Origin: Erysipelotrichaceae bacterium | GTDB lineage: Bacteria > Bacillota_I > Bacilli_A > Erysipelotrichales > Erysipelotrichaceae | Reading direction: 5' to 3' | DNA length: 64,000 nt | Assembly (NCBI GenBank): GCA_045544415.1 | Contig: JAZPYW010000108.1 | Location: forward strand, 141-64,140 | Shown: in pieces, positions 5,425 through 52,046 of the stretch | How positions within the stretch are numbered: position 1 is the first letter of the stretch | Layout: each line of letters begins with the position of its first letter | Notes under the pieces: generated by a model | Told to the model about the DNA's origin: nothing | The model's input: only the letters and a program-made list of their open reading frames with translations | Databases searched by the model: none | Translations under genes and position numbers: made by a program

Positions 5425-5466
5425 AGACAGCCTCCTCTCGACAATATTGTAACCGCTCGATACAGA

Positions 5467-5508
5467 TTTGTCGAGTACTCGACAAAAAAAATATCGAGTA
5501 CTCGATAT
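5467..5508. promoter_or_regulatory. Two perfect palindromes sharing the core CGAGTACTCG (candidate operators)
   Basis: TTTGTCGAGTACTCGACAAA (5467-5486) and ATATCGAGTACTCGATAT (5491-5508). They lie 40-85 nt upstream of the AlbA_2 gene start at 5424. Confidence 0.55.
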
Positions 5509-5523
5509 ACTCTATATACGTCA

Positions 5524-5548
5524 TATAAAAAGATCCTTTTCAGGATCT
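5524..5548 (-). terminator. Rho-independent terminator ending the PTS/GH1/paralog operon
   Basis: AGATCCT (5531-5537) tttc AGGATCT (5542-5548), followed on the minus-strand RNA by UUUUAU. 7 nt after the HAD stop codon. Confidence 0.6.
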
Positions 5549-5554
5549 CTTATG

Positions 5555-6388
5555 TCATTGTTTATCGAACAGATATGTCTCGATGAATCTTGCGAAACCG
5601 TCTTCCTCGTTGGTGTATTCCGTGATCACATCGGCAGCTGCCTTCGTATCGGGAGTGCCGTTCTTCATGCAGACACCGAATCCGGCTGTCTCCAGCAGAC
5701 CGTTGTCGTTGGTCATATCCCCGAAGGCCCATACATCTTCCAGAGAGATATGATGTTTCTCGCAATACCTCTTCAATGTCTTTCCTTTATCGGCTCCGGG
5801 TTCCTGGAATTCCAGCATCGTCGTCTGTGTCTTGAAGGAATGGAATTCTTTACAGTGGAACTGCTTCGCATATTCCGCTGCTTCTGCGATCGTTTCTTCA
5901 TCTCCCCGGTACATCAGCTTGAGCTGATCATCCATAGTCATCACTTCCAATGGTACGACTTCCAGATCGAACATATTCCTGGCTGCAGACGCTTCCGTAA
6001 GATCATCGATCTTTTCACACTGCACCTTTCCGTTCTTGTATACCTGTAGAGTCAGGCGTCCCTGAAAGACGGACATGATATCGCAGATCTTCTTCACGGT
6101 CTCTTTCTTCAGGATCGAGAAACTCTCTACGCGGTCTTCTTCCTTCTCCCAGATCTGTCCTCCGTTGAGTCCGATGATGAAGTCGAAATCAAAGGAAAGA
6201 CCCCAGTCTTCATACTTTTTGATCATCCATTTTTCCAGAGGTCTTCCCGAGGCGATACCTAAAAGGATGCCTCGGCGATGAAGCTCCTCATAGACTTCTC
6301 TGGTATGTTCCGACAGGACATGTGCGTCATTCGCGATCGTCCCGTCTATATCGGCTGCAATAAGTTTCGGCTTTTTATATATGCTCAT
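5555..6388 (-). CDS. Cof-type HAD-IIB phosphatase
   Basis: 277 aa. IAADIDGTI (DxDGT nucleophile motif), IASGRP, FGDMTNDNGLLE. ATGA overlap with EIIA. Confidence 0.8.
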   Translation of the reverse strand: MSIYKKPKLIAADIDGTIANDAHVLSEHTREVYEELHRRGILLGIASGRPLEKWMIKKYEDWGLSFDFDFIIGLNGGQIWEKEEDRVESFSILKKETVKKICDIMSVFQGRLTLQVYKNGKVQCEKIDDLTEASAARNMFDLEVVPLEVMTMDDQLKLMYRGDEETIAEAAEYAKQFHCKEFHSFKTQTTMLEFQEPGADKGKTLKRYCEKHHISLEDVWAFGDMTNDNGLLETAGFGVCMKNGTPDTKAAADVITEYTNEEDGFARFIETYLFDKQ

Positions 6389-6891
6389 CCGAGGATATCA
6401 TCCCCGCGCTTGACATCTCCAGGAGCACGGAAGACGAGGTCTTTCGGATTGGCTGTCAGAATGATCATCGTGGACATCTCATAGTTCTGTCTGAGCTTCT
6501 TCAGGTCGACTTCGACGATCGGATCACCGGCTTTGACCGCATCGCCCTGAGCCTTCTTCAGCAGACGGAAACCGTCGCCGTTGGCATTGACGGTGTTGAC
6601 ACCGCAGTGTACTAGGATCTCTGTGCCGTCATTCATGGCGATACCGAAAGCGTGTCCTGTAGGGAAAAGAACACCTAAAGTACCATTGGCCGGAGAACAG
6701 AGAACGACTTTGTCTCCTTCAAATGTAAGAGCGGTGGATCTGCCCATCATCTCTTCCGCAAAGACCGGATCACCTACTGTCTTGATGTCGATCAGCTTGC
6801 CGTCGGCAATAGCTACGATCTTATCATCGGCAACATCAAACGGTTCGAGAACTGCTTCTTCTTTTTTCTTGAAAATGTCAAATAACCCCAT
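6385..6891 (-). CDS. PTS EIIA component, glucose/beta-glucoside family
   Basis: 168 aa. DPVFAEEMMG, FPTGHAFGI and ILVHCGVNTV (phospho-His region) are typical of EIIA-Glc domains. Confidence 0.85.
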   Translation of the reverse strand: MGLFDIFKKKEEAVLEPFDVADDKIVAIADGKLIDIKTVGDPVFAEEMMGRSTALTFEGDKVVLCSPANGTLGVLFPTGHAFGIAMNDGTEILVHCGVNTVNANGDGFRLLKKAQGDAVKAGDPIVEVDLKKLRQNYEMSTMIILTANPKDLVFRAPGDVKRGDDILG

Positions 6892-6905
6892 ATTTTCCTC
6901 CTTGA

Positions 6906-7970
6906 CTATTTCTCTCTCGGATCGCTTACTTCAAACCCCATTTTGCGGATATTATCTACGTAAGCACCCATGACTTCAGTTATATTGTAATAGATTTTGT
7001 GTTTATAGGGAATATTTCCTTCATACCATGGACCGTATGCCTGCGTCTGTCCTTTTCTCTCGAATTTCGGTGTCGCCGAGTATCCCTTGCCTCCCCATTT
7101 ATAGTCGACATGGATATACTTTTCCGCAAAACGCCAGTCGCCGCTTACGAGCTGTACGGTATCGTCTCCCTCAGGCAGATAATCCGGACGGACGAACTTC
7201 GCATTCTCCAGATAGATCTCATCGGTCAGGACCGGTTCTTCCCCGTCCAGCATATACAGGCCGATGCCGTGACCGTTTGAACCGTCGATCGTCGAGATCA
7301 TCGCATAGACTGCTTCGCATCTTCCGTCTTCCCTCTCGCCGTCGAGATAGGCAGCGATATACGCAAAGGCCGTTTCATTGGACTTCTTCGCATCTTCATC
7401 CTTCGGTCTCCAGGTACGGTCATAGCCGCCCATGCCCTGTACAGGTCTTCCCTCATAAGTACCGGAGAGCTTGATGCCGGTCATCTGAGCGACCGCATGA
7501 CGCGGAGAATTGCGGTGTTCGAAGTGGCTGTTCTCGAGTGCCGTAAAGGTCAGATCGCAGATGCAGCCGTCCTTTCCTTCCACATATCTTCCGCCGTCTT
7601 TTCTCAGTTCGAACAAGGCGTACGGTTCTTTCGATTCGATACGGTAGGTCACCGGATCATCGCATACTTTTTCGTATGGGGTCGTAGCTGCATCGCCCTG
7701 AGCCAGATCGCTCACATGGGCTTCGCTCTGCGGGTCCAGGATGGTATTTCCCGGATGAACGATACCCGACCATCTCCAGGAAGAAGGGTTCATGTTGCGC
7801 ATGAATACGAGGGGCTTTTCATCTGTTCCTTCCGGATACAGCATTCCCCAGATCGCATACTGCAGGAGTTCCGCATAACCGTCTGTCTCATTCTGAAAGA
7901 CAGGAGGCGACAATGCGAGATCCTCATCTTCTACCGGCCGCACTTCGATCCCGAACGAAGTTCTGATCAT
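6906..7970 (-). CDS. Uncharacterised paralog family member P1 of 8 (most divergent copy)
   Basis: 354 aa. Shares the DGRxE, KG, GQ, GxWYxG, YxH and ExMxAY blocks with the other seven copies. No signal peptide or TM segment. Confidence 0.85.
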   Translation of the reverse strand: MIRTSFGIEVRPVEDEDLALSPPVFQNETDGYAELLQYAIWGMLYPEGTDEKPLVFMRNMNPSSWRWSGIVHPGNTILDPQSEAHVSDLAQGDAATTPYEKVCDDPVTYRIESKEPYALFELRKDGGRYVEGKDGCICDLTFTALENSHFEHRNSPRHAVAQMTGIKLSGTYEGRPVQGMGGYDRTWRPKDEDAKKSNETAFAYIAAYLDGEREDGRCEAVYAMISTIDGSNGHGIGLYMLDGEEPVLTDEIYLENAKFVRPDYLPEGDDTVQLVSGDWRFAEKYIHVDYKWGGKGYSATPKFERKGQTQAYGPWYEGNIPYKHKIYYNITEVMGAYVDNIRKMGFEVSDPREK

Positions 7971-7973
7971 AGT

Positions 7974-10481
<2,508 letters not shown>

Positions 10482-10492
<11 letters not shown>

Positions 10493-11519
10493 ATTTGTCC
10501 TCCTTGACTCTAAATCCCCTTTTCTTCAGATCATCTTCATACGCTTCCATATTCTCGGAGAACGTATTCCAGATCCTATGTTTATATGGGACATCTCCCT
10601 CATACCAGCAGCCGAAGATCTGCGACTGTCCGTGCCTCTCAAAGCGCGGTTTGGCGGTAAAGCCTTTCGCACCGCGATATCCTTTCACATGGAGGGTCTT
10701 TCCTCCAAACTTCCAGATATTGTCGACACAGACCATCGTTCCATCATCGACATACGGGAGTTTCTCCCATACACCTTCATTTGTGACTTCCCCGCTGATC
10801 ACCGGCTCTTCTCCTTCGAGCCAGTAGATCCCGAGGCCTTTTCCATTCTCGTGACAGCAGAGTCCGATGAACCATTCTCTCCGTCCGTCATCCCGTATCC
10901 CCGAGCAGTAGCTCGACAGATAGGAAGTCGCATTCTTCAGGATCTCCATCTCTTTTCCCTGAGGGGAGAAGATCCTGTCGATACAGGCGAGAAATTCGAT
11001 CGGTTCTCCTTCATAAGTCCCTTTCAGATGCACCGGCAGATGCATGAACGGGATGTTGTATTCCGAAGCCATGTGGCAGATGAGTCCGTACGGGAACCAT
11101 TCTCCTGTCACATCGAGAATGGAACCGTCTTTTCCTTCCTTCCAGGTACAGCCGTCTTCATTGTAGGTGAAGCACATCTCTCTTCCTTCGGTCGTATAGA
11201 TGCCGTAAGTAAGAGGATCTTCGCTCAATACACTGTACGGGATCGTCGGATCATCCTGAGCCATGTCTTCCCCGTGTACGCCTTCCTGCAGAGAGAAAGG
11301 TCCTTCTCCCAGACGTATGATGGCCGACCACCTCGAGGAGGTCTCATTCATATTGTGGAAGTAGTACAGCGGTTTTTCTTCGTTGCTTTTCAGCATGCCG
11401 CAGTTGTCGTGGCGGATGAGGCGCACGACATCCTCCGGAAAATCTTCCTTGAAACAGGAAGGGGTACTGCTGAAATCGTCATTGGTAAATCTACGGTATT
11501 CGATATGCAGATCGTTCAT
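10482..11519 (-). CDS. Uncharacterised paralog family member P3 of 8
   Basis: 345 aa. GIRDDGRRE, LPYVDDGT, RHGQSQIFGCWYEGDVPYKH, ENMEAY. 11-nt overlap with P2. Confidence 0.9.
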
Positions 11520-12541
11520 TATTCCTCCACCTCAAAGCCGAGCGCTCTGAGTCTTTCCGGATAGGCATCCATATTCTCGCAGGTATGGAAATAGAGCTTA
11601 TGTCTGTATTCGATATCTCCTTCATACCAGGTGCCGTAGGTCTCGGACTGGCCGTGCTTCTCATAGCGCGGATACGGCGTAAAGCCCTTGGAGCCCCAGA
11701 GACCCTTCATATGTATCGTCTTCGGACCGATATGGAAGATCGCATCCTGATAGGCGCAGGTGCCGTCATCGACGTACGGCAGTTTCTTCCATACCGTTTC
11801 CATCTTCATGTCGTGGGTGAAGAGAGGTTCTTTCCCGTCGATATAGTAGAGACCGATGTTCGATCCGTCCGCATGGAGACAGATCAAATAGGTCTCCAGT
11901 CTTCCGTCTTCTCGGATCCCATGGCCATACGAGAGGATGTAGGAGAGATCGTCACCGATGTCTTTTCCTGCCTGAGGAAGATAGATGCGGTCATAGTTTC
12001 CCATACCGATGACCGGTCTTCCGTCGAGATATCCGCTCCAGATGCACGGCTGCATGAACTGGGAGAGCGTCGGGAAGATATCCGCATGATCGACGATCGC
12101 AAAAGGATACGGGATCCCCTTGAGATCCAGGAAATCTCCTTCTTTCCAGATGCAGCAGTTCTCATAGTGATCGATCGAGCACTTCTTCGTATGGGAAGCG
12201 ATGCGGTAGAGCACCGGATCTTCCGATACCGGATGATAGGCCTCTTCTATCGGTGTATCCTTCTGTGCCATCTCATCCATGTGCAGGGCCTCCTGCAGAC
12301 CGAAGATGCCGTCTCCCGGATAGAAGATCGAACCGAAACGGAACTTATCGGTATTCGCATGTCTCATGACCCATAGAGGTTTCTTCGCGGTATCTCCATA
12401 CGGAAAGATCATTCCGTAGGGGTCGACCATGGCGATACGGGCCTTTCCGTCGATCTCGTTGTCAAAGGCTGCCGGTACGCCGTCGATCATATCGTCCTTT
12501 CGGGAAGGACGGAATTCTAAATAAGTGCTTCGTTCCTTCAT
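11519..12541 (-). CDS. Uncharacterised paralog family member P4 of 8
   Basis: 340 aa. GIREDGRLE, LPYVDDGTC, KHGQSETYGTWYEGDIEYRH, ENMDAY. TAATG junction with P3. Confidence 0.9.
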   Translation of the reverse strand: MKERSTYLEFRPSRKDDMIDGVPAAFDNEIDGKARIAMVDPYGMIFPYGDTAKKPLWVMRHANTDKFRFGSIFYPGDGIFGLQEALHMDEMAQKDTPIEEAYHPVSEDPVLYRIASHTKKCSIDHYENCCIWKEGDFLDLKGIPYPFAIVDHADIFPTLSQFMQPCIWSGYLDGRPVIGMGNYDRIYLPQAGKDIGDDLSYILSYGHGIREDGRLETYLICLHADGSNIGLYYIDGKEPLFTHDMKMETVWKKLPYVDDGTCAYQDAIFHIGPKTIHMKGLWGSKGFTPYPRYEKHGQSETYGTWYEGDIEYRHKLYFHTCENMDAYPERLRALGFEVEE

Positions 12542-12543
12542 GA

Positions 12544-13575
12544 TCAGTCCTCTTTTACGGTATAGCCGAGTTCTTTCAGTTTATAGTCGTAGGCTTCCAT
12601 ATTCTCATTGAAGGAATTGGATAATACGTGCTTATAAGGGGTCTTGCCGACATACCAGGTGCCGAAGACCTGGGACTGTCCGTGTCTCTCGATGCGCGGA
12701 TGTTTCGTGAAACCCTTCGTTCCCCATTTTCCTTCCATATGGAATTCGATATCCGCAAAACGGTATACAGCGCTCTCATAACCGCAGGTACCGTCGTCGC
12801 AATATGGAAGGTGTCTCCATTCCGCTTCCATCTCCACATCATAGGAGATGACCGGTTCTTCTCCTTCGAGCCAGTAGACACCGACCGAGATGCCTTTATG
12901 GTCCTTGCAGGCGATACATAATTCTTTTCTTCCGTCTTCCCTTATCCCGGAACCCATCGAAGAGACGTAGCCCAGGTTCTCGCCGAAGGCATGGGTGATG
13001 GTCTGAGGCATATAGCAGCGGTCATACGATCCGATGCCGTGGACCTTCTTTCCTTCATAGACGCCTTCTAATAGACACGGCTGAGCGAACTGCACCAATG
13101 GCGGATACATCGTCCCGTGGTCTTCGATCGTGATCGGGAACGGTGTCGCCTTCAGTTCCAGTACGCTTCCTTCTTTGAATTCCGCATGATCGGTATAGAA
13201 ACGATACGCGGAGAACGGTTCCTTCGAAGAGATCCCGTAGGTCAGCGGATCATCGGAGAGTTTCTCATAAGCAGTCGTCTTCGTATCTTTCTGAGCGAGG
13301 TCATCGTGGTGATAGCCTCCCTTCTGAGGAGAGAAAGGATCATCACCCAGTTCAACGATGCCTCCGAAACGGTAGGAAGCCGGATTGGAATGCCGGAAAA
13401 ACATGACCGGTTTCTCATCTTCTCTTCCTTCGAAGTAAAGCGATCCCCACATATCGTTGAGGCAGAGTTTTGCGTGTCCGTCCGCATCGTTATCGAACGT
13501 CTTCGGAGCGGTCTCCAGATAATCCGGCAGATACTCCGTGACGATCTTCAGGTAATGATCCTTTTTCATGATCAT
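12544..13575 (-). CDS. Uncharacterised paralog family member P5 of 8
   Basis: 343 aa. GIREDGRKE, LPYCDDGTC, RHGQSQVFGTWYVGKTPYKH, ENMEAYDYKLKELGY. Confidence 0.9.
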   Translation of the reverse strand: MIMKKDHYLKIVTEYLPDYLETAPKTFDNDADGHAKLCLNDMWGSLYFEGREDEKPVMFFRHSNPASYRFGGIVELGDDPFSPQKGGYHHDDLAQKDTKTTAYEKLSDDPLTYGISSKEPFSAYRFYTDHAEFKEGSVLELKATPFPITIEDHGTMYPPLVQFAQPCLLEGVYEGKKVHGIGSYDRCYMPQTITHAFGENLGYVSSMGSGIREDGRKELCIACKDHKGISVGVYWLEGEEPVISYDVEMEAEWRHLPYCDDGTCGYESAVYRFADIEFHMEGKWGTKGFTKHPRIERHGQSQVFGTWYVGKTPYKHVLSNSFNENMEAYDYKLKELGYTVKED

Positions 13576-14636
13576 TCTTCTACATCAAATCCTAATTCTT
13601 TCAGTTTATAGTCGTAGGCTTCCATATTCTCGCCGAACGTCATATACAGTCTGTGCTTGTACGGAGTCTTTCCTTCATACCAGGTACCGAAGATCTGCGA
13701 CTGGCCGTGCTTTTCAACTCTCGGCCTGATCGTGAATCCCTTCGTTCCCCATTTTCCTTCGAAGTGGAATTCCTTTCCTCCGAAACGGAAGATCGCATCC
13801 TTATAGACACAGGTACCGTCATCGACATACGGCAGCTTCTTCCATTCTGTCTCCATCGATACCTTATCGGTAAAGATCGGAGTCTCTCCGTCGATATAGT
13901 AGTAGCAGAAGTTCTTGCCGTGGAACGGGTCGATCGATATGAGCGCCTGTTCCCTTCTTCCATCTTCTTCCCTTATGCCCATCATATTCATATAGAAGTA
14001 GCCGAAGGCATTGGTGATGCCGTCGAAGCCGTGGACTTCGGAAGGGATGAAGAGACGGTCGTGTTCGCCAAGACCCAGACAAGGCCTGTTTTCATAGGTA
14101 CCCATGATGGATCCTGCCTGGATGATCGTCGAGACGTTGTTGTACATGGATTCATGTTCGACGATGGCTCTCGGCCAGGTCTCGTAGTTGAGTTCCATGA
14201 AGGAACCTTCCTTTACCGTAAATCTCTTCTCGCTGAAGATGTATTCTGCATGAGGGTCGATGCCTTCATAGCCGAAATGTTTCTCATCGATCTGATGGTA
14301 TTCCGTGATCGAAGAACCTCCCTGACCGATCTCCTCTACGTGATAAACACCTTTCTGGACATCCAGCCAGTCATCTCCCAGTTCCAGGAGATTGCCGAAA
14401 CGGAACTGTTTCTTCAGCATATCCGTATGCCGTATATACAGCATCGGTTTCTGATTCACATCTCCGTTCGGGAAGATCATGCCGATAAAATCGCATAAGG
14501 ACAGAACGGCTTTCCCGTCATAGGCCGTATTGAATACTTCCGGTGCCGGTACGACCAGATCTTCGGTCTTCAGTTCTTTCGTATCCGCGAAGAGGACCGG
14601 TCCTTCTTTATGTTCGAATAATATCTCTTTTTTCAT
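13572..14636 (-). CDS. Uncharacterised paralog family member P6 of 8
   Basis: 354 aa. GIREEDGRRE, LPYVDDGTC, KHGQSQIFGTWYEGKTPYKH, ENMEAYDYKLKELGF. ATGA overlaps on both sides. Confidence 0.9.
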   Translation of the reverse strand: MKKEILFEHKEGPVLFADTKELKTEDLVVPAPEVFNTAYDGKAVLSLCDFIGMIFPNGDVNQKPMLYIRHTDMLKKQFRFGNLLELGDDWLDVQKGVYHVEEIGQGGSSITEYHQIDEKHFGYEGIDPHAEYIFSEKRFTVKEGSFMELNYETWPRAIVEHESMYNNVSTIIQAGSIMGTYENRPCLGLGEHDRLFIPSEVHGFDGITNAFGYFYMNMMGIREEDGRREQALISIDPFHGKNFCYYYIDGETPIFTDKVSMETEWKKLPYVDDGTCVYKDAIFRFGGKEFHFEGKWGTKGFTIRPRVEKHGQSQIFGTWYEGKTPYKHRLYMTFGENMEAYDYKLKELGFDVEE

Positions 14637-15685
14637 TCGGCATCCTTTACATCAAAGCCCATGGCTTTTAATTTATCTTCATAAGCTTCCATGTTCTCCG
14701 AGAAGGTCATGGAAAGAGTGTGTTTGTACGGAGTCTTTCCTTCATACCAGGTACCCAGGATCTGGGACTGGCCGTGCTTTTCGATACGCGGTACAGGGGT
14801 GACACCTTTGGTGCCCCATTTTCCTTCGAAATGTATCTCTTTTCCCGCAAAGCGGAAGATCGCATCCTTGAAGACGCAGGTTCCGTCGTCGACATACGGC
14901 AGACGGTACCAGTCGGCTTCCATCGATACTTCCTGAGTCGTGATCAGCGGTTCTCCTTCGAGCTTGTAGTAGGCTCCGGCCGTACCGGTCTGATCCATCG
15001 CGATGAAGGCCATCTCCAGTCTTCCGTCTTCCCGTACACCCATGACGGTGAGGGAGATATAGCCGAGGGAAGAGAGGATGTTCTCATGTTTGTGGGAAAG
15101 CTGATAGTTCATCGCATAGTGGCCTAAGCCGACGACACTCTTTCCCCGGTAGGTTCCCGTGAACTTTGCCGGGAAGAAGATCTCCGGCAGATTGCCGAAG
15201 GCGCACTGATGATCGATGATCGCATCGGAGATATAATCCGCTCTGAGTTTCAGGACATCTCTTCCTTCTTCGAAGGTCGCATGGTCCTTGTAGAAACGGT
15301 ACTTCGAATACGGTTCTTCCGTTCCGAAACCGTAGACGAATTCGCCGTTCTCATCTTCTCTCTTGCGGTAGGTATCGGTGATCTCCCCTCTCTGGTGGAA
15401 ATCTTCCGTATCGCCGCTCTTCTGGACGTCAAACGGTCCGTCACCCAGTTCGATGACACCGCCGAAACGGTACATATCGATCAGCGCATGACGCATGAAA
15501 TAGCGCGGTTTTTCTTCTCCTTCAATATAGAGACAGCCGAACGGATCGCATAAGGCGATCTTGGCATCATCGTCTCTTTCGTTATGGAATACAGACGGGT
15601 GCAGGGTGAAGAGATCTTCGGTGATCTCCTTTTCCTCAAAGTAGCCGTCATTCAGTTCATTCTTGAAAAATACTTCTTTTGCCAT
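14633..15685 (-). CDS. Uncharacterised paralog family member P7 of 8
   Basis: ORF track starts at 15703. I prefer the ATG at 15685 (MAKEVFF...) because GGAGAGGAG lies 8-9 nt upstream and it sits 1 nt after the GH1 stop. GVREDGRLE, LPYVDDGTC, KHGQSQILGTWYEGKTPYKH. Confidence 0.85.
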   Translation of the reverse strand: MAKEVFFKNELNDGYFEEKEITEDLFTLHPSVFHNERDDDAKIALCDPFGCLYIEGEEKPRYFMRHALIDMYRFGGVIELGDGPFDVQKSGDTEDFHQRGEITDTYRKREDENGEFVYGFGTEEPYSKYRFYKDHATFEEGRDVLKLRADYISDAIIDHQCAFGNLPEIFFPAKFTGTYRGKSVVGLGHYAMNYQLSHKHENILSSLGYISLTVMGVREDGRLEMAFIAMDQTGTAGAYYKLEGEPLITTQEVSMEADWYRLPYVDDGTCVFKDAIFRFAGKEIHFEGKWGTKGVTPVPRIEKHGQSQILGTWYEGKTPYKHTLSMTFSENMEAYEDKLKAMGFDVKDAE

Positions 15686-15686
15686 A

Positions 15687-17150
<1,464 letters not shown>

Positions 17151-17159
17151 TTATGAGAA

Positions 17160-17198
17160 AGAAAAAAGGGATGACCTGTACAGGTCACAAGCCATCCC
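17160..17198 (-). terminator. Intra-operon rho-independent terminator/attenuator between EIIBC and GH1
   Basis: Minus-strand RNA GGGAUGGCUUGUGACCUGUACAGGUCAUCCCUUUUUUC. GACCU/AGGUC and GGGAU/AUCCC pair around a bulge, followed by six U. Confidence 0.6.
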
Positions 17199-17210
17199 TT
17201 GTATTACAGC
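17179..17210 (-). promoter_or_regulatory. RAT-like sequence overlapping the 5' arm of the intra-operon terminator
   Basis: RNA GCUGUAAUACAAGGGAUGGCUUGUGACCUGUA shares GGCUUGU and the xUGUxAxx...CCU layout with the better RAT at 19543-19576. The match is only partial. Confidence 0.35.
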
Positions 17211-17212
17211 GA

Positions 17213-18616
17213 TTAGAAATCTTTGACGTCCTTGAAACCGAAGAGGTAAGTCAGAACCGCAGCTACGACGACTGCGATGCCCAGACCGATCAGACCGGTG
17301 ATGAAGTTGGAAGTAGGACCGCCGGCAAAAGCCATGACAGCCATCAGGTTACTGGAAGCGACGATCGTGTATTCACCGGTATGAGTGAGACCCAGGAACA
17401 GGGAACCTGCAGCAGCACCGATACAGGACATGATGATCGGCTTCTTGTAGCGGATACCGACACCGAAGAGAGCCGGTTCCGTGATACCGCCAATGGCGTG
17501 AGTGACTAAGTAGGAAGCAACTAAGGCTCTGTTTTCCGGATCCTTAGCCTTTAATAAAGCACCGATCTCCATACCGAGAAGACCAAAGACGGAAGTCATC
17601 ATACCCGGAAGGATGAGGAAATCGACACCGCCGTTTTCCGCCATGATGCCTAAGGCGATCATGAACAGCGGGATGTGCATACCGAACATGATGGCAAAGA
17701 TAAAGATACCGCCGATGATCGTACCCATCAGGATAGCCGGGATACGGCCGAGGGAACCGATCTTGACAAAGACACCCGCTAAGACATTACCGATGAGCGT
17801 ACCTAACGGACCGACGACACAGAGGACGATCGGGATCATGATCAGGATCGTCAAGAGCGGAACGAAGACCATTCTCAACGCATTCGGGATGTGCTTGTGG
17901 ATGAACTTCTCAACATAGGACATGATCCAGACGGACAGTAATGCCGGGATCGTGGAAGAAGCGTAGGAAACGGCGGTCATCGGGATACCGTATACTTTGA
18001 ACGGAACACCGGAATTGACGATCTCGATGAGCGTCGGATGCAGCATCATCGCACCGATGAAGACACCGAGTACCGGAGAACAGTTGAACTTCTTGGCAGC
18101 GGTCATACCCATGAATACCGGCAGGAAGTAGAATCCGACGTTACCGACGAATGTGAAGAGTCTGTAGAGGTCGGATTCCGCAGATAAGACATTCAGCATC
18201 GTCGGACCGAAGAGGGTCGGGATCAAGCTGATGAAGGAAGAAGCGACGATAGCCGGAATGATCGGAATGAAGCTGTCGGCGATCGCTGTGACGATGTTGT
18301 TGAGGACTTTACGGAAGGTGAGTGCCCCCTTCGTGTCGAGAACTTCATCGACAGCAGCCTGCTTGGCGATGTGGTAGGTATCGCAGAGTTCATCATAGAC
18401 TTCTGCAACTCCCGGACCGATGATCAGCTGGAGCTGAGAACCGGCAACACTCTTTCCGAGGACGCCTTTGACTTTGTCTAATGCGTCATTCTTGACGAGA
18501 CCCCAGTCTTTTAATTCAAAACGAAGTCTGGTAGCACAGTGGTAGCAGGAAGAAATGTTTTCTGCCCCGCCCAGGCATTCGACGATACCGTCGATCAATG
18601 CTTTGTAGTTTGCCAT
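17213..18616 (-). CDS. PTS EIIBC component, glucose/beta-glucoside family
   Basis: 467 aa. N-terminal EIIB with CYHCATRLRF (phospho-Cys motif), then a polytopic EIIC. No IIA domain (EIIA is encoded separately at 6385-6891). Confidence 0.9.
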   Translation of the reverse strand: MANYKALIDGIVECLGGAENISSCYHCATRLRFELKDWGLVKNDALDKVKGVLGKSVAGSQLQLIIGPGVAEVYDELCDTYHIAKQAAVDEVLDTKGALTFRKVLNNIVTAIADSFIPIIPAIVASSFISLIPTLFGPTMLNVLSAESDLYRLFTFVGNVGFYFLPVFMGMTAAKKFNCSPVLGVFIGAMMLHPTLIEIVNSGVPFKVYGIPMTAVSYASSTIPALLSVWIMSYVEKFIHKHIPNALRMVFVPLLTILIMIPIVLCVVGPLGTLIGNVLAGVFVKIGSLGRIPAILMGTIIGGIFIFAIMFGMHIPLFMIALGIMAENGGVDFLILPGMMTSVFGLLGMEIGALLKAKDPENRALVASYLVTHAIGGITEPALFGVGIRYKKPIIMSCIGAAAGSLFLGLTHTGEYTIVASSNLMAVMAFAGGPTSNFITGLIGLGIAVVVAAVLTYLFGFKDVKDF

Positions 18617-18662
18617 AATTTTCCCCTTTCAATGTATAAGTTACAGGTATCCCTGTAATGGC

Positions 18663-19475
18663 CTATTCGCTTTCTCTCTGGCAGAGTCTCGTTACATGCA
18701 GTGTCAGAAAGAGTACTTCATCCCCGGTCAGGTCTCCATATCCCTGTTCCTCGAGGTATCCCCGGATATGAAGAGCACAGTCATACGCTGCCGGATTTGC
18801 CGCCTTCATCGTATTCAGCAGATCCGGGTAATTCTCTTCTTTATTGAACTGCGTCTTCTTTAACAGATAATGCATATGCGAGGCGAAGCGGGAGTAATTG
18901 ATGCTCTCCCGGCTGATCTCGATGCCCATATCATCAGAGATCATCTCGGTGATCTCTTCGATGGTCCTGAGTTCCCTCTCCTGTCTGTTGGAAGCTTCCG
19001 TCTCGGAATTGACGATGTTGAGGGCGATATAGCAGGCTTCATCGTTCGGCATCTGCACACCCAGTTTCTTCCGGATCAGTTCCAGACCGTATTTCCCGAT
19101 CTCCATCTCTTCCGGGAACTTGAAGCGGATATCATCCTTGATCGGCAATGTGAACTGTATGCCTTTCTGCTGTCTCTCGATCGCAAAGGAGATATGATCG
19201 ATCAATGAGAACATCAGGTTGCTGCCGGTGAAGAGTCCGGCTTCCATAGCTTTATCCCGGATGGCCATCGCTACATCGACGACCTTTTCATCCGCATTCT
19301 CCATCAGGTCCAGATAGCGTTTATCGACATGATAAAAAGTCCTCTCGATATCCTTGATGTCGATATCGTACGGAGGTTTTTTGAAGCCGATGCCCTTGGC
19401 GAAAGCAACTACCTCATTTCCGGCAGAATCTTCACAGATCGCTACGTTGTTATTGATGTTTTTGATGACTTTCAT
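18663..19475 (-). CDS. licT: BglG/LicT-family transcription antiterminator (CAT domain plus two PRDs)
   Basis: 270 aa. MKVIKNINNNVAICEDSAGNEVVAFAKGIGFKK is a CAT RNA-binding domain. The PRD histidine regions follow. Confidence 0.9.
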   Translation of the reverse strand: MKVIKNINNNVAICEDSAGNEVVAFAKGIGFKKPPYDIDIKDIERTFYHVDKRYLDLMENADEKVVDVAMAIRDKAMEAGLFTGSNLMFSLIDHISFAIERQQKGIQFTLPIKDDIRFKFPEEMEIGKYGLELIRKKLGVQMPNDEACYIALNIVNSETEASNRQERELRTIEEITEMISDDMGIEISRESINYSRFASHMHYLLKKTQFNKEENYPDLLNTMKAANPAAYDCALHIRGYLEEQGYGDLTGDEVLFLTLHVTRLCQRESE

Positions 19476-19542
19476 CCAATCCCCTCAGATAAGAAAAACT
19501 CCCCAAAAGAACTCGCAGTAAACACATCTTCCAATAAATGCG

Positions 19543-19576
19543 TTTAGGACAAGCCTCCCGAGGAGTAACAACCCTA
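19543..19576 (-). promoter_or_regulatory. Ribonucleic antiterminator (RAT) element in the licT leader
   Basis: Minus-strand RNA GGGUUGUUACUCCUCGGGAGGCUUGUCCUAAA versus the remembered Bacillus RAT consensus GGAUUGUUACUGC...GCAGGCAAAACCUAAA. GGGGAGUUUUU (19493-19504) downstream may form a terminator with ACUCCUC. Confidence 0.6.
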
Positions 19577-19587
19577 ATACCATTTAC

Positions 19588-19616
19588 ATGATATTGAAAA
19601 ATTTGAGAAATGTCAA
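19588..19616 (-). promoter_or_regulatory. Sigma-A-type promoter of the licT-PTS-GH1-paralog operon
   Basis: Minus strand TTGACA (19616-19611), 17-nt spacer, TATCAT (19593-19588). The RAT begins about 7-12 nt downstream. Confidence 0.6.
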
Positions 19617-19660
19617 ACGCTTTCATTATTATATAAATGATGAGATCTAAGGAGAAAAAG

Positions 19661-20479
19661 ATGAAACTGGAAAAAGGAAAGACAGCTGTCGTTACCGGTG
19701 CTGCCAAAGGTATCGGCAAAGGAATAGCGCTCTGCCTGACAAAAAGAGGCGTCAAAGTCTATCTGCTGGATATCGATGATGAAGAGAATAAGAAGACGGA
19801 AGAAGAGTTGAGACAGTATGCGGAAGCGTATGCACTGCACTGCGATGTCGGAGATCCGGAAGAGATCTATAAAGTGTTCGATGAGATCCTGAAAGAAGAT
19901 CCTGTCGATATCCTCGTCAACAATGCCGGGATCTTCATCGCCAATTCCTATCTGAAAGGAACGTACGAGGAAGCTCTTGAGGTATTTGATAAACAGATGG
20001 CCGTCAATGCCAGAGGCACCTATCTCTGTACGAAGAAAGCTGCTATGCAGATGGCGGAGAGAAAAAGCGGAGCCATCCTCAATATCGTCACCAATCATCT
20101 GAAGCGGGAACTCTACCGTCCGAGCCGTTCCGAACAGGCCTACGATGCCTCCAAATGGGCGCAGTATGAACTCAATGAATCGATGGACCGGGAACTCAGG
20201 GAATACGGGATACGGGTCAATGCCTTGTGTCCGGCCTCTACGAGGACCCCGATGCTGGAAGGATTCTTTACCGACTACGGCCTTCCTTTGAATCAGGAGA
20301 ATGTCTTTAAAGTCACTCATTTCGATTCTCTATTGGAGATCGAGGATGTCGGTGAAGCTGCCTGCAATGTCCTGGAATGGGAAGATCCGGAACCGACCGG
20401 AAAAGCTTATCTGCTGATATACAAAGAAGACTGCATGAGACTGAAAGACGGCCACGTGCAGGAACTGGCTATACGTTAA
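19661..20479 (+). CDS. Short-chain dehydrogenase/reductase (SDR)
   Basis: ORF track starts at 19637. The ATG at 19661 is preceded by AAGGAG. TGAAKGIGKGIA (cofactor motif), NNAG, YDASKWA (YxxxK). Confidence 0.85.
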   Translation: MKLEKGKTAVVTGAAKGIGKGIALCLTKRGVKVYLLDIDDEENKKTEEELRQYAEAYALHCDVGDPEEIYKVFDEILKEDPVDILVNNAGIFIANSYLKGTYEEALEVFDKQMAVNARGTYLCTKKAAMQMAERKSGAILNIVTNHLKRELYRPSRSEQAYDASKWAQYELNESMDRELREYGIRVNALCPASTRTPMLEGFFTDYGLPLNQENVFKVTHFDSLLEIEDVGEAACNVLEWEDPEPTGKAYLLIYKEDCMRLKDGHVQELAIR

Positions 20480-20504
20480 AAGGATATCCCCGGGGATATC
20501 CTTT
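20479..20504. terminator. Bidirectional terminator between the convergent SDR and P8 genes
   Basis: Perfect 26-nt palindrome AAAGGATATCCCC|GGGGATATCCTTT flanked by T-rich sequence. Confidence 0.7.
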
Positions 20505-20508
20505 CTTC

Positions 20509-21519
20509 TTAATCGATGATCTTGTAGCCTAATTTGGCGAATTTATAATCGAAGGCTTCCATGTTCTCATGGAAACAGGTGAACATCTTATGTTTATACG
20601 GAGTGTCTCCTTCATACCAGGTACCGAAGATCTGGGACTGTCCGTGTTTCTCATAGCGTGGACGAGGTGTGATGCCTTTGGTCCCCCATTTTCCTTCGAA
20701 GTGGATGACCTTGTTTCCGATATGGAATACCGCATCCTTGTACATCAGCGTACCGTCATTCACATACGGCTGATGGAACCATTCCGTCTCCATCTTCACA
20801 TCTTCGGATACGACCGGTTCTTCTCCTTCCAGATAGTAGAGACCCATGGACTCTCCCTTTTCATTGATGAAGACGACGAAGGATTCCTTTCTTCCATCTT
20901 CTCTTATTCCGTGATCGAGGACGAGGATGTAAGCCATCGTCGAACCGATGTCCTTCTGTTCCTCTGCCGGCATATAGACTTTATCGAAGCTTCCCAGGAA
21001 TTCGACCGGTTTTCCTTCATAGGTGCCCCGGACGATAGCCGGCTGTATGGCTTCGCAGAAGTTGGCTGTCTTTCCCATCCTCTGTATCACACAGTACGGG
21101 AACGGTTCGGCCGTCACATCGAAGAAGTCTCCTTCTTTCCAGGTGCCGTAGAGTTTCTTGTCGATATCATAGTAGCGGTATTCGGAGAACGGCTCTTTAC
21201 TACCATATCCGTAGATCCACGGATCGCTTGAGAGCTGACGGAATACTTCCGTACCGCCTTTCTGCATCATATCATCCCCGTGCAGATAGGTCTGTACACC
21301 TGTCGGGTCCTCATTCAGTCTCAGGAAACCGCCGAAACGGTAGCCGTTCATATTGCCATGACGGACAAAGAGGATCGGCGCTTTTTCTTCATCGAAGATG
21401 AGCCCGTAAGCATCGACTAAAGCGAGTTTCCCATAGCGGTCAAATTCATTCTGAAACGATTCCGGTCTTTCCCGAAAGAAATCCTCCTGATGTCTGCTGA
21501 TCTTCATGATCGGTTCCAT
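20509..21519 (-). CDS. Uncharacterised paralog family member P8 of 8 (satellite copy)
   Basis: 336 aa. GIREDGRKE, QPYVNDGT, KHGQSQIFGTWYEGDTPYKH, ENMEAF. Last gene of a HAD-HAD-P8 unit. Confidence 0.9.
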   Translation of the reverse strand: MEPIMKISRHQEDFFRERPESFQNEFDRYGKLALVDAYGLIFDEEKAPILFVRHGNMNGYRFGGFLRLNEDPTGVQTYLHGDDMMQKGGTEVFRQLSSDPWIYGYGSKEPFSEYRYYDIDKKLYGTWKEGDFFDVTAEPFPYCVIQRMGKTANFCEAIQPAIVRGTYEGKPVEFLGSFDKVYMPAEEQKDIGSTMAYILVLDHGIREDGRKESFVVFINEKGESMGLYYLEGEEPVVSEDVKMETEWFHQPYVNDGTLMYKDAVFHIGNKVIHFEGKWGTKGITPRPRYEKHGQSQIFGTWYEGDTPYKHKMFTCFHENMEAFDYKFAKLGYKIID

Positions 21520-21530
21520 AGTGTTCTCCT

Positions 21531-22334
21531 TTATTCCTCCATCGGTCTTATGAGCCCGTGACGCAGGAGCGCGTGGTATACACCGTCCTCCAGTACGTCT
21601 TCCGTTACTTCATCAGCTCTGTTTTTCACTTCTTCTACGGCATTTCCCATCGCGATCCCCGTTCCGGCTTCCTCCATCATCTCCAGATCATTGAAGGAAT
21701 CTCCGAATACGTAGACATCTTCGACCGGAGTACCCGTCAGTTCACAATAACGGCGTATCCCGATGCCTTTGTTGATGCCGCGGATATTGACATCCACATA
21801 GGCCATCCCCTCGAACTGATAGCGGACATCGAGGTCCTTTGAGAAGATCTTTATGAAGTCCTCCATCGTATCCGTAGTATCGAAGGCGATCGACAGCATA
21901 TTGATGACTTCTTCCGGATCTCTGTCTTCATACGGAGTATATTCCGTATCATCTTCAAAGAGTTCGCAGAAATATTCGTGGACCGGATGTCCGATCCCGT
22001 TGGTATAGACACGGAAGGCCGATTCTACATAATAGACACTGTTGTGGCTGTCGCAGTAATCGACGATCTCCCGGATATAATGTTCTTCCAGTCCGTAATT
22101 GAAGAAGGTCTTCCCGTCTAGCTGCAGAAAGGAACCGTTACACATAAGATAGCCGTCCGCCTGAAGATCGACGATCCCCTGCGGCAGCATCCCCAGCATC
22201 CTTCCCGAAGCGATGATCGTACGGGCATTCTTCTTCAGTTCCCGGAAGGCATACTTCGTCTTTTCGCTCGGTTCCTTGAGTCCTCTCAGCAGGTCGATGA
22301 GCGTACCGTCGATGTCGAAGAACACCGTCTTCAT
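21531..22334 (-). CDS. Cof-type HAD-IIB phosphatase
   Basis: 267 aa. FFDIDGTL, IASGR, FGDSFNDLEMME. Confidence 0.8.
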   Translation of the reverse strand: MKTVFFDIDGTLIDLLRGLKEPSEKTKYAFRELKKNARTIIASGRMLGMLPQGIVDLQADGYLMCNGSFLQLDGKTFFNYGLEEHYIREIVDYCDSHNSVYYVESAFRVYTNGIGHPVHEYFCELFEDDTEYTPYEDRDPEEVINMLSIAFDTTDTMEDFIKIFSKDLDVRYQFEGMAYVDVNIRGINKGIGIRRYCELTGTPVEDVYVFGDSFNDLEMMEEAGTGIAMGNAVEEVKNRADEVTEDVLEDGVYHALLRHGLIRPMEE

Positions 22335-23173
22335 CTTTCTTCCTCCAGGATGTGTTTTCTTATGAAACGGGCCATACCGCTGTCGTGGCAGGGATATTCC
22401 GTGGTGTATTCTGCAGCCTCCAGGGCATCCTTCGTCCCGTCGCAGAGACAGACACCGTGTCCGTATTTCAGCATCTCGATATCGTTGGAAGTATCGCCGA
22501 AGGCATAGACCTCATCGGCAGAGAAACCGTGTTCCTCGCAGTATTTTTTCAGGGCAGCACCCTTGTCGATCCCCTTCTTCATCACTTCGTAGCAGATGAT
22601 CTGGGTACGGAAACCGCTGTGGTTCTTGAACGGATGCACTTTGACATATTCGACGACTCCATCCAGTTTATCGGCATCGACACGGAACAGGATCCTATAG
22701 ATCTTCCGGTCTCTGATATCATCCAGAGAAGAAATCTCCGCAAAGCGGGAATTTCCGGCATTTCTCTTTACGGAAGCACGGATGAGATCGTTCATTCCCA
22801 TCAGGTAATTGACATCATCATCGCAGTAGATACTGGCAGGCAGGTCCAGAGAAGACATGTGATCGAGCACTTCTTTCGCTTCATCGACATCCATCAGTCC
22901 GATATCGTAATGAAAACCGGTCTCCGAATCTTCCAGCATCGCACCATTCATCCCGATATAGAAATCAAAAGGCGCTTCCAGTCCCCATTCTTCATAACAG
23001 GAAGTGATCGCCGAGATCGGTCTTCCGGAAGCCAGTCCGGTCCGTATCCCTCTTCTGTGGAGCTCATTGAGAACGTCTCTCGTCTCCTGTGTGATCACAT
23101 GATCGACACCGCAGATCGTACCGTCGATATCCATCACTACTGCTTTTACTTTGTTTTCAGACGTATTTTTCAT
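22331..23173 (-). CDS. Cof-type HAD-IIB phosphatase
   Basis: 280 aa. VMDIDGTI, LASGRP, FGDTSNDIEML. 4-nt overlap with the next HAD gene. Confidence 0.8.
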   Translation of the reverse strand: MKNTSENKVKAVVMDIDGTICGVDHVITQETRDVLNELHRRGIRTGLASGRPISAITSCYEEWGLEAPFDFYIGMNGAMLEDSETGFHYDIGLMDVDEAKEVLDHMSSLDLPASIYCDDDVNYLMGMNDLIRASVKRNAGNSRFAEISSLDDIRDRKIYRILFRVDADKLDGVVEYVKVHPFKNHSGFRTQIICYEVMKKGIDKGAALKKYCEEHGFSADEVYAFGDTSNDIEMLKYGHGVCLCDGTKDALEAAEYTTEYPCHDSGMARFIRKHILEEER

Positions 23174-34900: not shown

Positions 34901-35763
34901 AGCATACGCTTTTCATTCTGAACGATGATAGACGGAGTACCGGATTCGAGCTGTTTCTTCAGACGGTTGTTTCTGGTGATGACACGACGGTATAAGTCGT
35001 TGAGGTCACTGGTCGCAAAACGTCCGCCATCCAGCTGCAGCATAGGACGCAGATCCGGTGGAATGACCGGAAGAACCGTGAGAACCATCCATTCAGGCTT
35101 GTTCTCGGATTCTACGAAGGCATTGATCGTCTCGAGTCTCTTGATGAGTTTCTTGCGCTTATCGCCCTGAGCCTTTTCCAGCTCTTTGACGATGCTTTCT
35201 TTCTCTTTGACGACATCTACCTGTTCGAGCAGCGTCTTGACTGCTTCTGCACCGGTCATGGCCTTGAAGGCATCACGTCCGTACATCGTTTCATAGTTTC
35301 TTACTTCCAGCTCTGTTAAAGGCTGTTTGTATTCAAGCGGGGTATTCCCCGGATCCGTAACGATCCATGTAACGAAGTATACGACTTCTTCCAGGATCTT
35401 GGCGGATACATTGAGTACCAGGGACATTCTGCTTGGAATTCCCTTTAAGTACCAGATGTGCGCTATCGGAGCTGCCAGTGTGATATGGCCCATACGTTCT
35501 CTACGTACGGATGCCTTTGTGATCTCAACACCACATTTATCACAGATGACGCCTTTATAACGTACTTTCTTGTATTTACCACAGTAGCATTCCCAGTCTT
35601 TTGTCGGACCGAAAATCCTTTCGCAGAATAATCCGTCTCTTTCCGGTTTCTGGCTTCTGTAGTTGATGGTTTCCGGTTTCGTTACCTCACCGTGTGACCA
35701 TTCAAGAATACGTTCAGGAGATGCTAAACCAACTTTGATCGCTTCAAATCTGTTTGCAGCCAT
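31936..35763 (-). CDS. rpoC: DNA-directed RNA polymerase subunit beta'
   Basis: 1275 aa. Zinc-binding [20 protein letters not shown], catalytic [12 protein letters not shown], trigger-loop and bridge-helix regions. Acidic C-terminal tail. Confidence 0.98.
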
Positions 35764-39899: not shown

Positions 39900-39937
39900 A
39901 TAAGCGCCGTCCTTTCCAATCAATCAATGTAGAAAAA

Positions 39938-41632: not shown

Positions 41633-41638
41633 CTTAAT

Positions 41639-41667
41639 ATATTAACTTATTATTGTAAAAAACACAA
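41639..41667 (-). promoter_or_regulatory. Candidate promoter for rplJ-rplL
   Basis: Minus strand TTGTGT (41667-41662), 17-nt spacer, TAATAT (41644-41639). Confidence 0.4.
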
Positions 41668-51957: not shown

Positions 51958-51964
51958 TTGTTGT

Positions 51965-52041: not shown

Positions 52042-52046
52042 TCTCT

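Follow-up and report, generated by a model that had tools for sequence, protein, structure and literature searches.

A rare and unnamed protein family of beta-glycoside PTS operons with a predicted AttH/CrtC-like two-domain beta fold

Gene content of the locus

The analysed DNA, a 64-kb stretch of contig JAZPYW010000108.1 from an Erysipelotrichaceae bacterium (in its full length termed the window), contains a beta-glucoside phosphotransferase system (PTS) locus in which eight intact minus-strand open reading frames (ORFs) of 336–358 residues code for members of one protein family, here labelled X. Family X is real, rare and unnamed; its genes show a tight linkage to PTS operons for beta-glycosides, and structure models assign it to the fold class of AttH, CrtC and the fungal decalin synthases. 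In the order of their positions the genes are X1 (6906–7970), X2 (9416–10492), X3 (10482–11519), X4 (11519–12541), X5 (12544–13575), X6 (13572–14636), X7 (14633–15703) and X8 (20509–21519). The start of X7 is assigned to the first ATG at 15703, the second ATG at 15685 being equally possible. An earlier note made from the letters of this DNA had already listed eight homologous minus-strand ORFs, whose coordinates were re-found, the seventh with an alternative start.

The eight proteins can be aligned end-to-end with 41 invariant columns and 30–37% identity to the first sequence, and the motif blocks previously described as common to all of them are visible in this alignment. Identities over all pairs range from 30 to 47%, X1 being the most divergent paralog, and a family X hidden Markov model (HMM) run over the window ORFs retrieved exactly these eight, among them X2 and X4, and no others. 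Judged from these alignments, the homology of the eight ORFs is far beyond chance. The X proteins have masses of 39–41 kDa and are acidic with an isoelectric point of ca. 5. Neither a signal peptide nor a membrane segment is found in the eight proteins (maximal 19-residue Kyte-Doolittle mean ≤1.07), as the earlier inspection had stated. X5 serves as reference for residue numbering throughout.

Seven X genes belong to a co-directional unit of 13 genes on the minus strand in the order licT, EIIBC, GH1, six X, GH1, X, EIIA and HAD; this gene order and the seven copies had been recognized before, whereas the earlier count of 12 genes has to be corrected. The unit is preceded by a sigma-70-like promoter (19588–19616, minus strand) consisting of TTGACA, a 17-nt spacer and TATCAT, which with 11 of 12 positions is the best promoter-like match in the region. 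In the adjacent licT leader (19476–19585, minus strand), a ribonucleic antiterminator (RAT)-like element overlaps a long terminator hairpin with a U-run. The RAT-like element TTGTTACTCCTCGGGAGGC at 19553–19571 occurs only once in the window, with 0 occurrences expected by chance, and its 3' half forms part of the terminator hairpin. The leader fold has a dG of -36.7 kcal/mol (z -4.1), and UUUUUCUU lies directly after the stem.

The first gene, licT (18663–19475, minus strand), codes for a BglG/LicT-family antiterminator composed of CAT_RBD and PRD domains (NCBIfam LicT, E 4.6e-56), and the second (17213–18616, minus strand) for a beta-glucoside-type EIIBC with PTS_EIIB and PTS_EIIC domains, which among the NCBIfam models is matched best by the beta-glucoside-specific IIABC (E 3.8e-113). 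Between the EIIBC stop and the start of the first GH1 gene lies a strong terminator-like hairpin of 15 pairs (17166–17200, minus strand) followed by TTTTTCTTTCT, which could attenuate or stabilise the transcript, such that the levels of the transporter and of the downstream GH1 and X products would differ. The two GH1 genes, GH1b (15687–17135, minus strand; Glyco_hydro_1, E 7e-123) and GH1a (7974–9407, minus strand; Glyco_hydro_1, E 6.7e-129), share 53% identity and belong to 6-phospho-beta-glucosidase subfamilies; in both of them the NEI acid/base, the ENG nucleophile and the C-terminal S-x-S-T-G-E-M-x-K-R-Y motifs are intact. The unit is completed by a glucose-family EIIA gene (6385–6891, minus strand; PTS_EIIA_1, E 5e-36) and, as last gene, a Cof-type HAD-IIB phosphatase (5555–6388, minus strand; Hydrolase_3, E 8e-49; Cof subfamily). 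A short hairpin (AGATCC..GGATCT) with a T-run at 5525–5548 (minus strand), 3' of this gene, was read from the sequence and is not listed by the terminator scan; it is the probable end of the 13-gene unit.

X8 is located outside the licT unit and closes a separate HAD-HAD-X unit extending from 23173 to 20509, where it is preceded by the Cof-type HAD phosphatases HADc (22331–23173, minus strand; assigned by domain and subfamily matches) and HADb (21531–22334, minus strand), which raises the number of Cof-type HAD-IIB phosphatases at the locus to three. Convergent with X8 and divergent from licT, a short-chain dehydrogenase/reductase (SDR) is encoded on the plus strand (19637–20479; adh_short, E 5e-42). 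The minus-strand ORF 19613–20320 (235 residues) has no family match and was rejected as a gene, being an antisense shadow of the SDR. Domain and NCBIfam matches agree with the earlier naming of the neighbours as LicT, EIIBC, two GH1 enzymes, EIIA and a Cof-type HAD. Antiterminator, RAT/terminator leader, BglF-type EIIBC, EIIA and GH1, i.e. the hallmarks of a LicT/BglG-controlled beta-glucoside PTS operon, are all present.

Rarity and distribution of family X

No name could be attached to family X by comparison with existing collections. Pfam gave no match for the eight paralogs at E ≤ 0.01, nothing meaningful for 32 family members at E ≤ 10 and no match for ten of the most distant members at E ≤ 0.1; likewise, there was no NCBIfam match at E ≤ 0.1, no match of the eight paralogs to the PADLOC anti-phage defence models at E ≤ 0.01, and nothing relevant in a profile search of all PDB sequences with the core and distant alignments at E ≤ 10. 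The homolog of Parolsenella catena (WP_337379334.1) is annotated as "hypothetical protein" at NCBI. The earlier statement that the family is uncharacterised is thereby confirmed. Moreover, literature searches on PTS, phospho-beta-glucosidases, lipocalin-like proteins and the carrier organisms retrieved no description of it.

A word-indexed search of 5.8 billion proteins yielded 26 X clusters, none of them with a Pfam domain or a name, and when 1.84 billion representatives (50% identity) were searched exhaustively with the HMM, only 94 proteins scored at E ≤ 1e-3, 46 of them at E ≤ 1e-30. A second word-indexed search with the alignment of the distant members returned two matches, both of them members already included. 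With each GTDB species represented by one genome, a scan detected 29 X loci, the majority in Erysipelotrichaceae (Traorella, Longicatena, Breznakia, Solobacterium) and Lachnospiraceae (Agathobacter), with single cases in Streptococcaceae, in Faecalibacterium and Oscillospiraceae metagenome-assembled genomes (MAGs), in Pelolinea and in Frondihabitans. A metagenome locus scan with a smaller X alignment gave two short loci, and a tblastn search of X against plasmids found nothing.

Two candidate relatives were discarded. A protein with DUF7064/DUF7065 domains near a distant X relative (locus L035) was considered as a bridge to known families and rejected at an hhalign probability of 0.14%. The "hypothetical protein" CfNukS of the sinigrin PTS/GH1 operon of Companilactobacillus farciminis is reported to contain a P-loop (PMC8660893). 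Since family X has no P-loop, CfNukS, which is set apart by its published description, is very probably a different protein and not a member of the family.

Predicted fold and structural relatives

AlphaFold2 models of X5 (model 1; pLDDT 92.6, pTM 0.90) and of the divergent X1 (model 2; pLDDT 94.8, pTM 0.91), built from a 32-sequence alignment, are both all-beta and organized into two lobes. Foldseek searches of the PDB retrieved for both models the same small set of structures, namely NE1406/AttH (pdb-code: 2ich), kievitone hydratase (7a0t, 7a0q) and the Diels-Alderase/pericyclase-type decalin synthases (7e5t, 7e5u, 7e5v, 7dmn, 7dmo, 7e22), with E-values of 3e-6 to 3e-3, probabilities of 0.91–1.0 and TM-scores of 0.33–0.47. 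The top match of model 1 is NE1406 (E 3.3e-6, probability 1.0, TM 0.41–0.45), and the best matches of model 2 are the fungal decalin synthases (E 1e-5, TM up to 0.47), which also score strongly with model 1. In both searches all matches at E ≤ 0.003 belong to the AttH/CrtC-like superfamily with two lipocalin domains; the next E-values jump to ca. 0.01 (probability 0.30) for model 1 and ca. 0.09 for model 2. The models thus place family X firmly, although at the fold level only, into the AttH/CrtC/decalin-synthase class. A two-lobed AttH-like beta fold had been offered before as a guess, which is borne out for these two high-confidence models, and the structural match, proposed at that time as a check, exists yet does not trivially explain the genes. 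A sequence-profile bridge from X to the superfamily (CrtC, DUF2006/AttH, Lipocalin_9) was not found with Pfam, PDB and hhalign comparisons.

The superfamily is built up of two fused lipocalin-like domains with the working pocket in between (bioRxiv 10.1101/2021.02.01.429105), and its CrtC/AttH-like group comprises cofactor-free hydratases and rearrangement enzymes, an acidic Asp being proposed as the catalyst of CrtC (PMC6013536). NE1406/AttH (PF09410 DUF2006) resembles X in the two lipocalin-like beta domains and in the size of ca. 320–350 residues; it differs in that a sequence relationship is not detectable and in that NE1406 is tied to lipid or carotenoid metabolism (PMC2954199; bioRxiv 10.1101/2021.02.01.429105) instead of sugar uptake. 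The CrtC-superfamily hydratases, i.e. kievitone hydratase, CrtC and the archaeal hydroxy-GDGT synthase Hgs, share with X the fold, a mass of ca. 35–45 kDa and the independence from a cofactor. For CrtC an acidic Asp is the proposed proton donor, and X retains an Asp/Glu set (Asp213, Glu217, Glu134) even in its most distant relatives. Kievitone hydratase detoxifies a plant phytoalexin (PMC6013536; bioRxiv 10.1101/2025.10.20.683597), which is conceptually close to a handling of plant aglycones. However, the hydratases of the CrtC superfamily act on non-polar double bonds of isoprenoids, kievitone hydratase is secreted by a fungus and CrtC is membrane-associated, whereas X is cytoplasmic and acidic, possesses a conserved basic cluster and resides in PTS operons. 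The decalin synthases (Fsa2, Phm7, CghA and MycB-type pericyclases) also consist of two beta domains, between which a pocket with polar residues positions and activates the substrate (bioRxiv 10.1101/2021.02.01.429105). In contrast to X, they are fungal, belong to polyketide synthase (PKS)–nonribosomal peptide synthetase (NRPS) clusters and act on polyenoyl tetramic acids; their sequence identity to X amounts to 7–11%. None of the 34 X loci described below has a PKS or NRPS neighbour.

Genomic context of the homologs

For the analysis of the genomic context three contigs obtained by exact protein look-up, the 29 genome loci and the window were combined and annotated by local HMM searches and Pfam. 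The resulting 34 loci hold 51 X ORFs corresponding to 50 genes, one copy (L032) being split in two. A PTS EIIC is encoded in 28 of the 34 loci, GH1 in 24 and LicT in 21. X directly follows EIIC in 22 cases, another X in 12 and GH1 in seven, and LicT-EIIBC-X-GH1(-EIIA) is the commonest layout. The linkage holds not only for the BglF-type EIIBC but also for EIIC of the Lac/cellobiose type, which occurs together with PRD/Mga-type regulators in seven loci (L018, L019, L025–L027, L029 and L030). Family X is therefore tightly linked to beta-glycoside PTS operons, which answers the question of the earlier note whether its homologs travel with PTS and GH1 genes; the opposite picture, in which homologs lie mostly outside carbohydrate loci, was checked for and is not observed.

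GH1 is less constant than the transporter. Six PTS loci with X (L010, L019, L020, L025, L029, L030) contain no GH1 gene in the available sequence, two of them reading LicT-EIIBC-X-EIIA (L010, L020). Several of the GH1-less X loci are truncated by the end of a contig, and the respective genomes may encode GH1 at another place. Further genes recur beside X: a Cof-type HAD in L009, L017 and the window and, as part of a fusion with X, in L016; an SDR in the window, L009 and L017; flavoenzymes of ca. 630–650 residues resembling old yellow enzyme (OYE) and 2,4-dienoyl reductase in L019, L022 (three copies), L029 and L038; and an iron-dependent alcohol dehydrogenase in L004 and L027. The large flavoenzymes combine an OYE with a pyridine-nucleotide-disulphide-reductase part and are of the 2,4-dienoyl-CoA-reductase/enoate-reductase type. 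SnoaL-like (L019), PNPOx-like (L030) and 3-hydroxyisobutyrate-dehydrogenase-like (L025) proteins were each found once. In a goat-rumen Erysipelotrichaceae MAG (L017), the series GH1-X-X-SDR is followed by a 573-residue fusion of a Cof-type HAD with a metallo-beta-lactamase fold (7149–8870, plus strand).

Multiple copies are not confined to the window, although its eight copies are the most in any of the 34 loci. An Agathobacter array (L006) reads EIIBC-X-X-X-EIIA-X-GH1, two adjacent X genes are present in L009, L017, L018 and L022, and two non-adjacent ones in L005 and L029; the ortholog of Longicatena caecimuris (L011) is single-copy. In L032, which contains no PTS genes, X consists of two overlapping ORFs (5944–6807 and 6761–6994 within 5944–6994, plus strand), probably reflecting a frameshift or a pseudogene.

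More distant relatives are found outside the PTS, though often still in loci of the sugar type. One lies between a ROK regulator with a CUT2 sugar ATP-binding cassette (ABC) transporter and an OYE, without PTS or GH1 (L038), a second follows a major facilitator superfamily (MFS) transporter (L036), and a third precedes an M24 peptidase, an FGGY kinase and a class II aldolase (L040). The two most remote relatives examined, one on an actinobacterial and one on a Gram-negative contig, lie in non-sugar contexts.

All regulatory, transport and hydrolytic parts of the classical LicT-type operons, licT-bglPH of Bacillus subtilis and bglGFB of E. coli, are also present in the window. These classical operons are not known to contain an X gene. 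What sets the X loci apart is the insertion of one to seven X genes, placed between the genes for transporter and hydrolase or behind them, and often the presence of HAD, SDR or OYE partners. In view of fold and context we regard X as a new branch of a known enzyme fold, orphan in sequence, that has been recruited to PTS-dependent glycoside catabolism, a genomic setting not described for the AttH/CrtC group.

Orthogroups and a phosphatase fusion

Each paralog of the window is closer to a protein of another genome (55–86% identity) than to any of its own sisters (30–47%). For two of them the database holds just one nearer entry, which is the sequence of the window itself. X3 is 67% identical to an Agathobacter copy of the L006 array, X6 belongs to the orthogroup of the common single-copy LicT-EIIBC-X-GH1 loci (up to 86% identity to P0003), and the closest ortholog of X7 elsewhere shares 82% identity. 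Recent tandem duplication as origin of the array was thus rejected, the sister copies being more distant from each other than from orthologs elsewhere. By these identities the copies are firmly classed as old orthogroups rather than as products of a recent amplification, and the "copy-number expansion" of the earlier note, insofar as it implied a local amplification, has to be abandoned. Old orthogroups fit a stable sub-specialisation.

X8 represents a HAD-linked orthogroup, exemplified also by L009 with the order SDR-HAD-X-X. In L016, a Cof-type HAD phosphatase and a family X domain are encoded together by a single ORF of 634 residues (5110–7014, plus strand). Residues 22–288 of the fusion protein are a full-length ortholog of HADb (43% identity) and residues 293–634 a full-length ortholog of X8 (63% identity). 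A Rosetta-stone fusion of this kind, which joins what are neighbouring genes in the window, argues for X8 and a phosphatase of the sugar-phosphate type acting on consecutive intermediates. The surroundings in L016 are otherwise of the housekeeping type (EngA, GpsA, NAPRTase, NAD synthase) with no PTS nearby.

Conservation pattern

The two predicted lobes have diverged to different degrees. Among the X proteins of the window the N lobe has a mean identity of 31%, compared with 49% for the C lobe, and the same split is seen in the wider core family. About 20 polar or aromatic residues are nearly invariant across the 42 X copies from the fetched loci, irrespective of the orthogroup. They comprise Arg61, Arg69, Gln84, Glu134, Tyr202, Arg211, Asp213, Arg215, Glu217, Tyr233, Glu238, Tyr257, Asp260, His278, Trp283, Lys286, Tyr307, Tyr313, His315 and Glu323.

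When the core family was compared with 25 more distant members, these residues separated into two sets. Glu134, Asp213, Glu217 and Tyr233 are kept in 76–92% of the distant members, whereas Arg69, Gln84, Arg211, Arg215, Lys286 and His315 are present in 90–98% of the core and in 8–32% of the distant members. Distant relatives with readable loci are associated with ABC or MFS transporters or with non-sugar loci. The pattern suggests a shared acid/base apparatus, to which the PTS-linked clade would have added a basic sub-site. A phosphate ester would require such a sub-site.

Chromosomal surroundings

The glucoside locus is chromosomal and positioned ca. 9 kb from rpoC, since an L10 leader (41520–41639), rpoB (35766–39923, 1385 residues) and rpoC (31936–35763, 1275 residues), all on the minus strand, as well as tRNA genes and an FMN riboswitch are near. 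The tRNA genes, five in number, form two clusters; they and the riboswitch are located at 51882–52122, 55677–55839 and 58995–59114, all on the plus strand.

Beyond the 3' end of the 13-gene unit, an ORF of 488 residues (3958–5424, minus strand) combines Schlafen AlbA_2 and HATPase_c_4 domains and shows partial PADLOC matches (E 3e-17 to 1e-9) to pAgo- and Aga-associated models; its function, next to the glucoside operon, may lie in defence or regulation. Just upstream of it, on the minus strand, lie the near-identical palindromes ATATCGAGTACTCGATAT (5491–5508) and GTCGAGTACTCGAC (5470–5483), and TCGAG half-sites near 5470–5508 overlap a promoter-like site (TCGACA, 17-nt spacer, TACAAT). Palindromes and half-sites together look like an operator array. 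A radical SAM/SPASM-domain protein (2848–3930, plus strand) is encoded just past the Schlafen-like gene, and an ORF of 663 residues (27812–29803, minus strand) with no Pfam match at E ≤ 1e-5 is situated between a YhhN-family gene and a GntR regulator.

Proposed function of family X

Context, conservation and fold lead us to infer an enzymatic role of X, the binding of a phosphate ester and the type of chemistry that might be catalysed. As a tentative proposal, which we prefer to the alternatives but hold to be a possibility rather than the expected outcome, X acts as a cofactor-free acid/base enzyme on the phosphorylated glycoside and combines a conserved site for the sugar phosphate with a variable lobe for the aglycone. 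X would then be a soluble cytoplasmic enzyme of two lipocalin-like beta domains working at the first intracellular step after uptake, on the glycoside 6'-phosphate delivered by the beta-glucoside PTS. The conserved basic and aromatic site, centred on the C lobe, would hold the sugar-phosphate end and the poorly conserved N lobe would read the aglycone. The carboxylates of Glu134, Asp213 and Glu217, together with Tyr233, might run a cofactor-free acid/base step at or beside the aglycone or the linkage, conceivably a hydration, an isomerisation, a ring closure or rearrangement, or an elimination. This step would either prepare the glycoside for GH1 or fix the fate of the aglycone at its release, and the recurrent partners, i.e. 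the Cof-type phosphatase, the SDR, the OYE-type ene-reductase and the iron-dependent alcohol dehydrogenase, might finish the conversion. Each orthogroup would correspond to a different aglycone class, and the genome studied here would keep seven orthogroups under one LicT/RAT switch with one transporter and two GH1 enzymes.

An action on the phosphorylated transport product is favoured because X preferentially follows EIIC, because PTS loci with X but without visible GH1 exist, because one orthogroup is fused to a phosphatase and because the basic cluster is kept in PTS loci but for the most part replaced elsewhere. Several points weigh against it. The known relatives in fold act on hydrophobic, non-phosphorylated molecules. 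An extra step before GH1 is not obviously needed, since the intact GH1 in most loci already explains the cleavage. Arg211 and Arg215 persist in the relative of the ABC transporter locus, where entry involves no phosphorylation. Finally, the TM-scores to known structures are only 0.33–0.47 and a profile-level sequence link to the superfamily was not found.

The first of these points leads to the strongest competitor, which we nevertheless consider rather unlikely, namely that X works after cleavage and on the free aglycone only, as a hydratase, isomerase or cyclase which detoxifies or stabilises reactive plant aglycones, the neighbouring reductases completing the process. This corresponds to the role downstream of cleavage assumed in the earlier note and agrees with the hydratases and pericyclases of hydrophobic natural products among the fold relatives, with the recurrence of small-molecule redox genes (OYE, SDR, iron-dependent alcohol dehydrogenase) and of SnoaL-like and PNPOx-like genes beside X, and with the many orthogroups and the variable N lobe. 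However, ca. 20 near-invariant polar, basic and aromatic residues imply a common polar moiety, which diverse aglycones do not offer, and homologs outside PTS loci have largely replaced the basic cluster. Moreover, X prefers the slot directly after EIIC and is present in PTS loci without visible GH1, and a fusion to a phosphatase exists for one orthogroup. The order EIIC-then-X, the GH1-less loci, the fusion and the basic cluster thus shift the preference to the phosphorylated product. From the earlier interpretation, the uncharacterised family, its linkage to PTS and GH1 and the fold have stood, whereas the expansion and the placement after cleavage have not.

Lipocalin-type domains are classic ligand binders, and X, devoid of a cofactor and of a canonical catalytic motif, adjoins the transporter gene with overlapping or close start and stop codons. 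It might therefore be a non-catalytic carrier, which sequesters phospho-glycosides or toxic aglycones or passes them from EIIC to GH1 or an exporter. We regard this as quite unlikely, given that the invariant Asp/Glu/His/Tyr/Arg set resembles an active site more than a hydrophobic cavity, with the carboxylates kept even in distant relatives, that all functionally characterised structural neighbours are enzymes and that the HAD fusion suggests consecutive reactions. Furthermore, a stoichiometric binder is a costly answer to a substrate which is used as carbon source.

An equally doubtful scenario assigns the cleavage itself to X, as a new phospho-glycoside-cleaving enzyme that proceeds by acid-catalysed hydration or elimination, i.e. 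by a non-Koshland mechanism, on linkages or aglycones inaccessible to GH1 and fills the catabolic slot in GH1-less operons. The two loci of the layout LicT-EIIBC-X-EIIA (L010, L020) and four others (L019, L025, L029, L030), all without GH1 in the available sequence, would be explained in this way; the invariant carboxylates (Glu134, Asp213, Glu217, Glu238, Asp260, Glu323) could provide the catalysts, and a sugar phosphate would fit the aromatic and basic residues that are conserved. Cleavage of a glycosidic bond via hydration of a double bond has precedents in GH88 and GH105. Against this scenario, a canonical GH1 is also encoded in most loci and in the window, contig ends truncate several of the GH1-less loci, and neither the Pfam searches nor the significant Foldseek matches reveal any likeness of X to a glycoside hydrolase or lyase. 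A general accessory function of X in sugar-phosphate housekeeping or in regulation, for instance as a glucose-6-phosphate anomerase/epimerase or as a modulator of EII or LicT, is highly improbable: X does adjoin transporters of three classes (PTS, ABC, MFS), a transporter-adjacent pattern also known from small mutarotases in sugar operons, but eight diverged orthogroups with a variable lobe fit poorly with a single substrate or partner, Foldseek searches of the two models gave no likeness to aldose epimerases or PTS regulatory domains, and a family as rare as X cannot be a general requirement of the beta-glucoside PTS.

A bolder conjecture may be added, which we consider unlikely, less so than the carrier and somewhat more so than an action on the free aglycone alone. 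X might represent an unrecognised class of glycoside catabolism based on the hydratase/Diels-Alderase double barrel, with one orthogroup per class of plant glycosides, which either cleaves phospho-glycosides by a non-Koshland route or serves as a bacterial "specifier" that steers unstable aglycones at their release by GH1. Plant specifier and dirigent-type proteins are non-hydrolytic, work beside a beta-glucosidase, decide the fate of unstable aglycones and occur as paralogs for individual aglycones. The analogy to X is a functional one only, as the plant proteins have other folds, namely a Kelch propeller or a single eight-stranded barrel, with no relation to that of X.

Implications

Should X be only a binder or a minor detoxifier, it would still be a new Pfam-less family with a clear context, although of specialist interest only. 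Cultured carriers of X are Longicatena caecimuris DSM 29481, Breznakia pachnodae DSM 16784, Traorella massiliensis, Parolsenella catena and Frondihabitans cladoniiphilus JCM 18956. Belonging to the fold of cofactor-free Brønsted-acid enzymes and pericyclases, the chemistry of X could be unusual and useful for biocatalysis. Firmicutes of gut and rumen convert dietary plant glycosides to bioactive or toxic aglycones, and the accepted PTS route consists of two steps, phosphorylating uptake and subsequent hydrolysis by a GH1 phospho-beta-glucosidase. A conserved third component encoded between the transporter and hydrolase genes implies a step of this pathway which has so far not been described.

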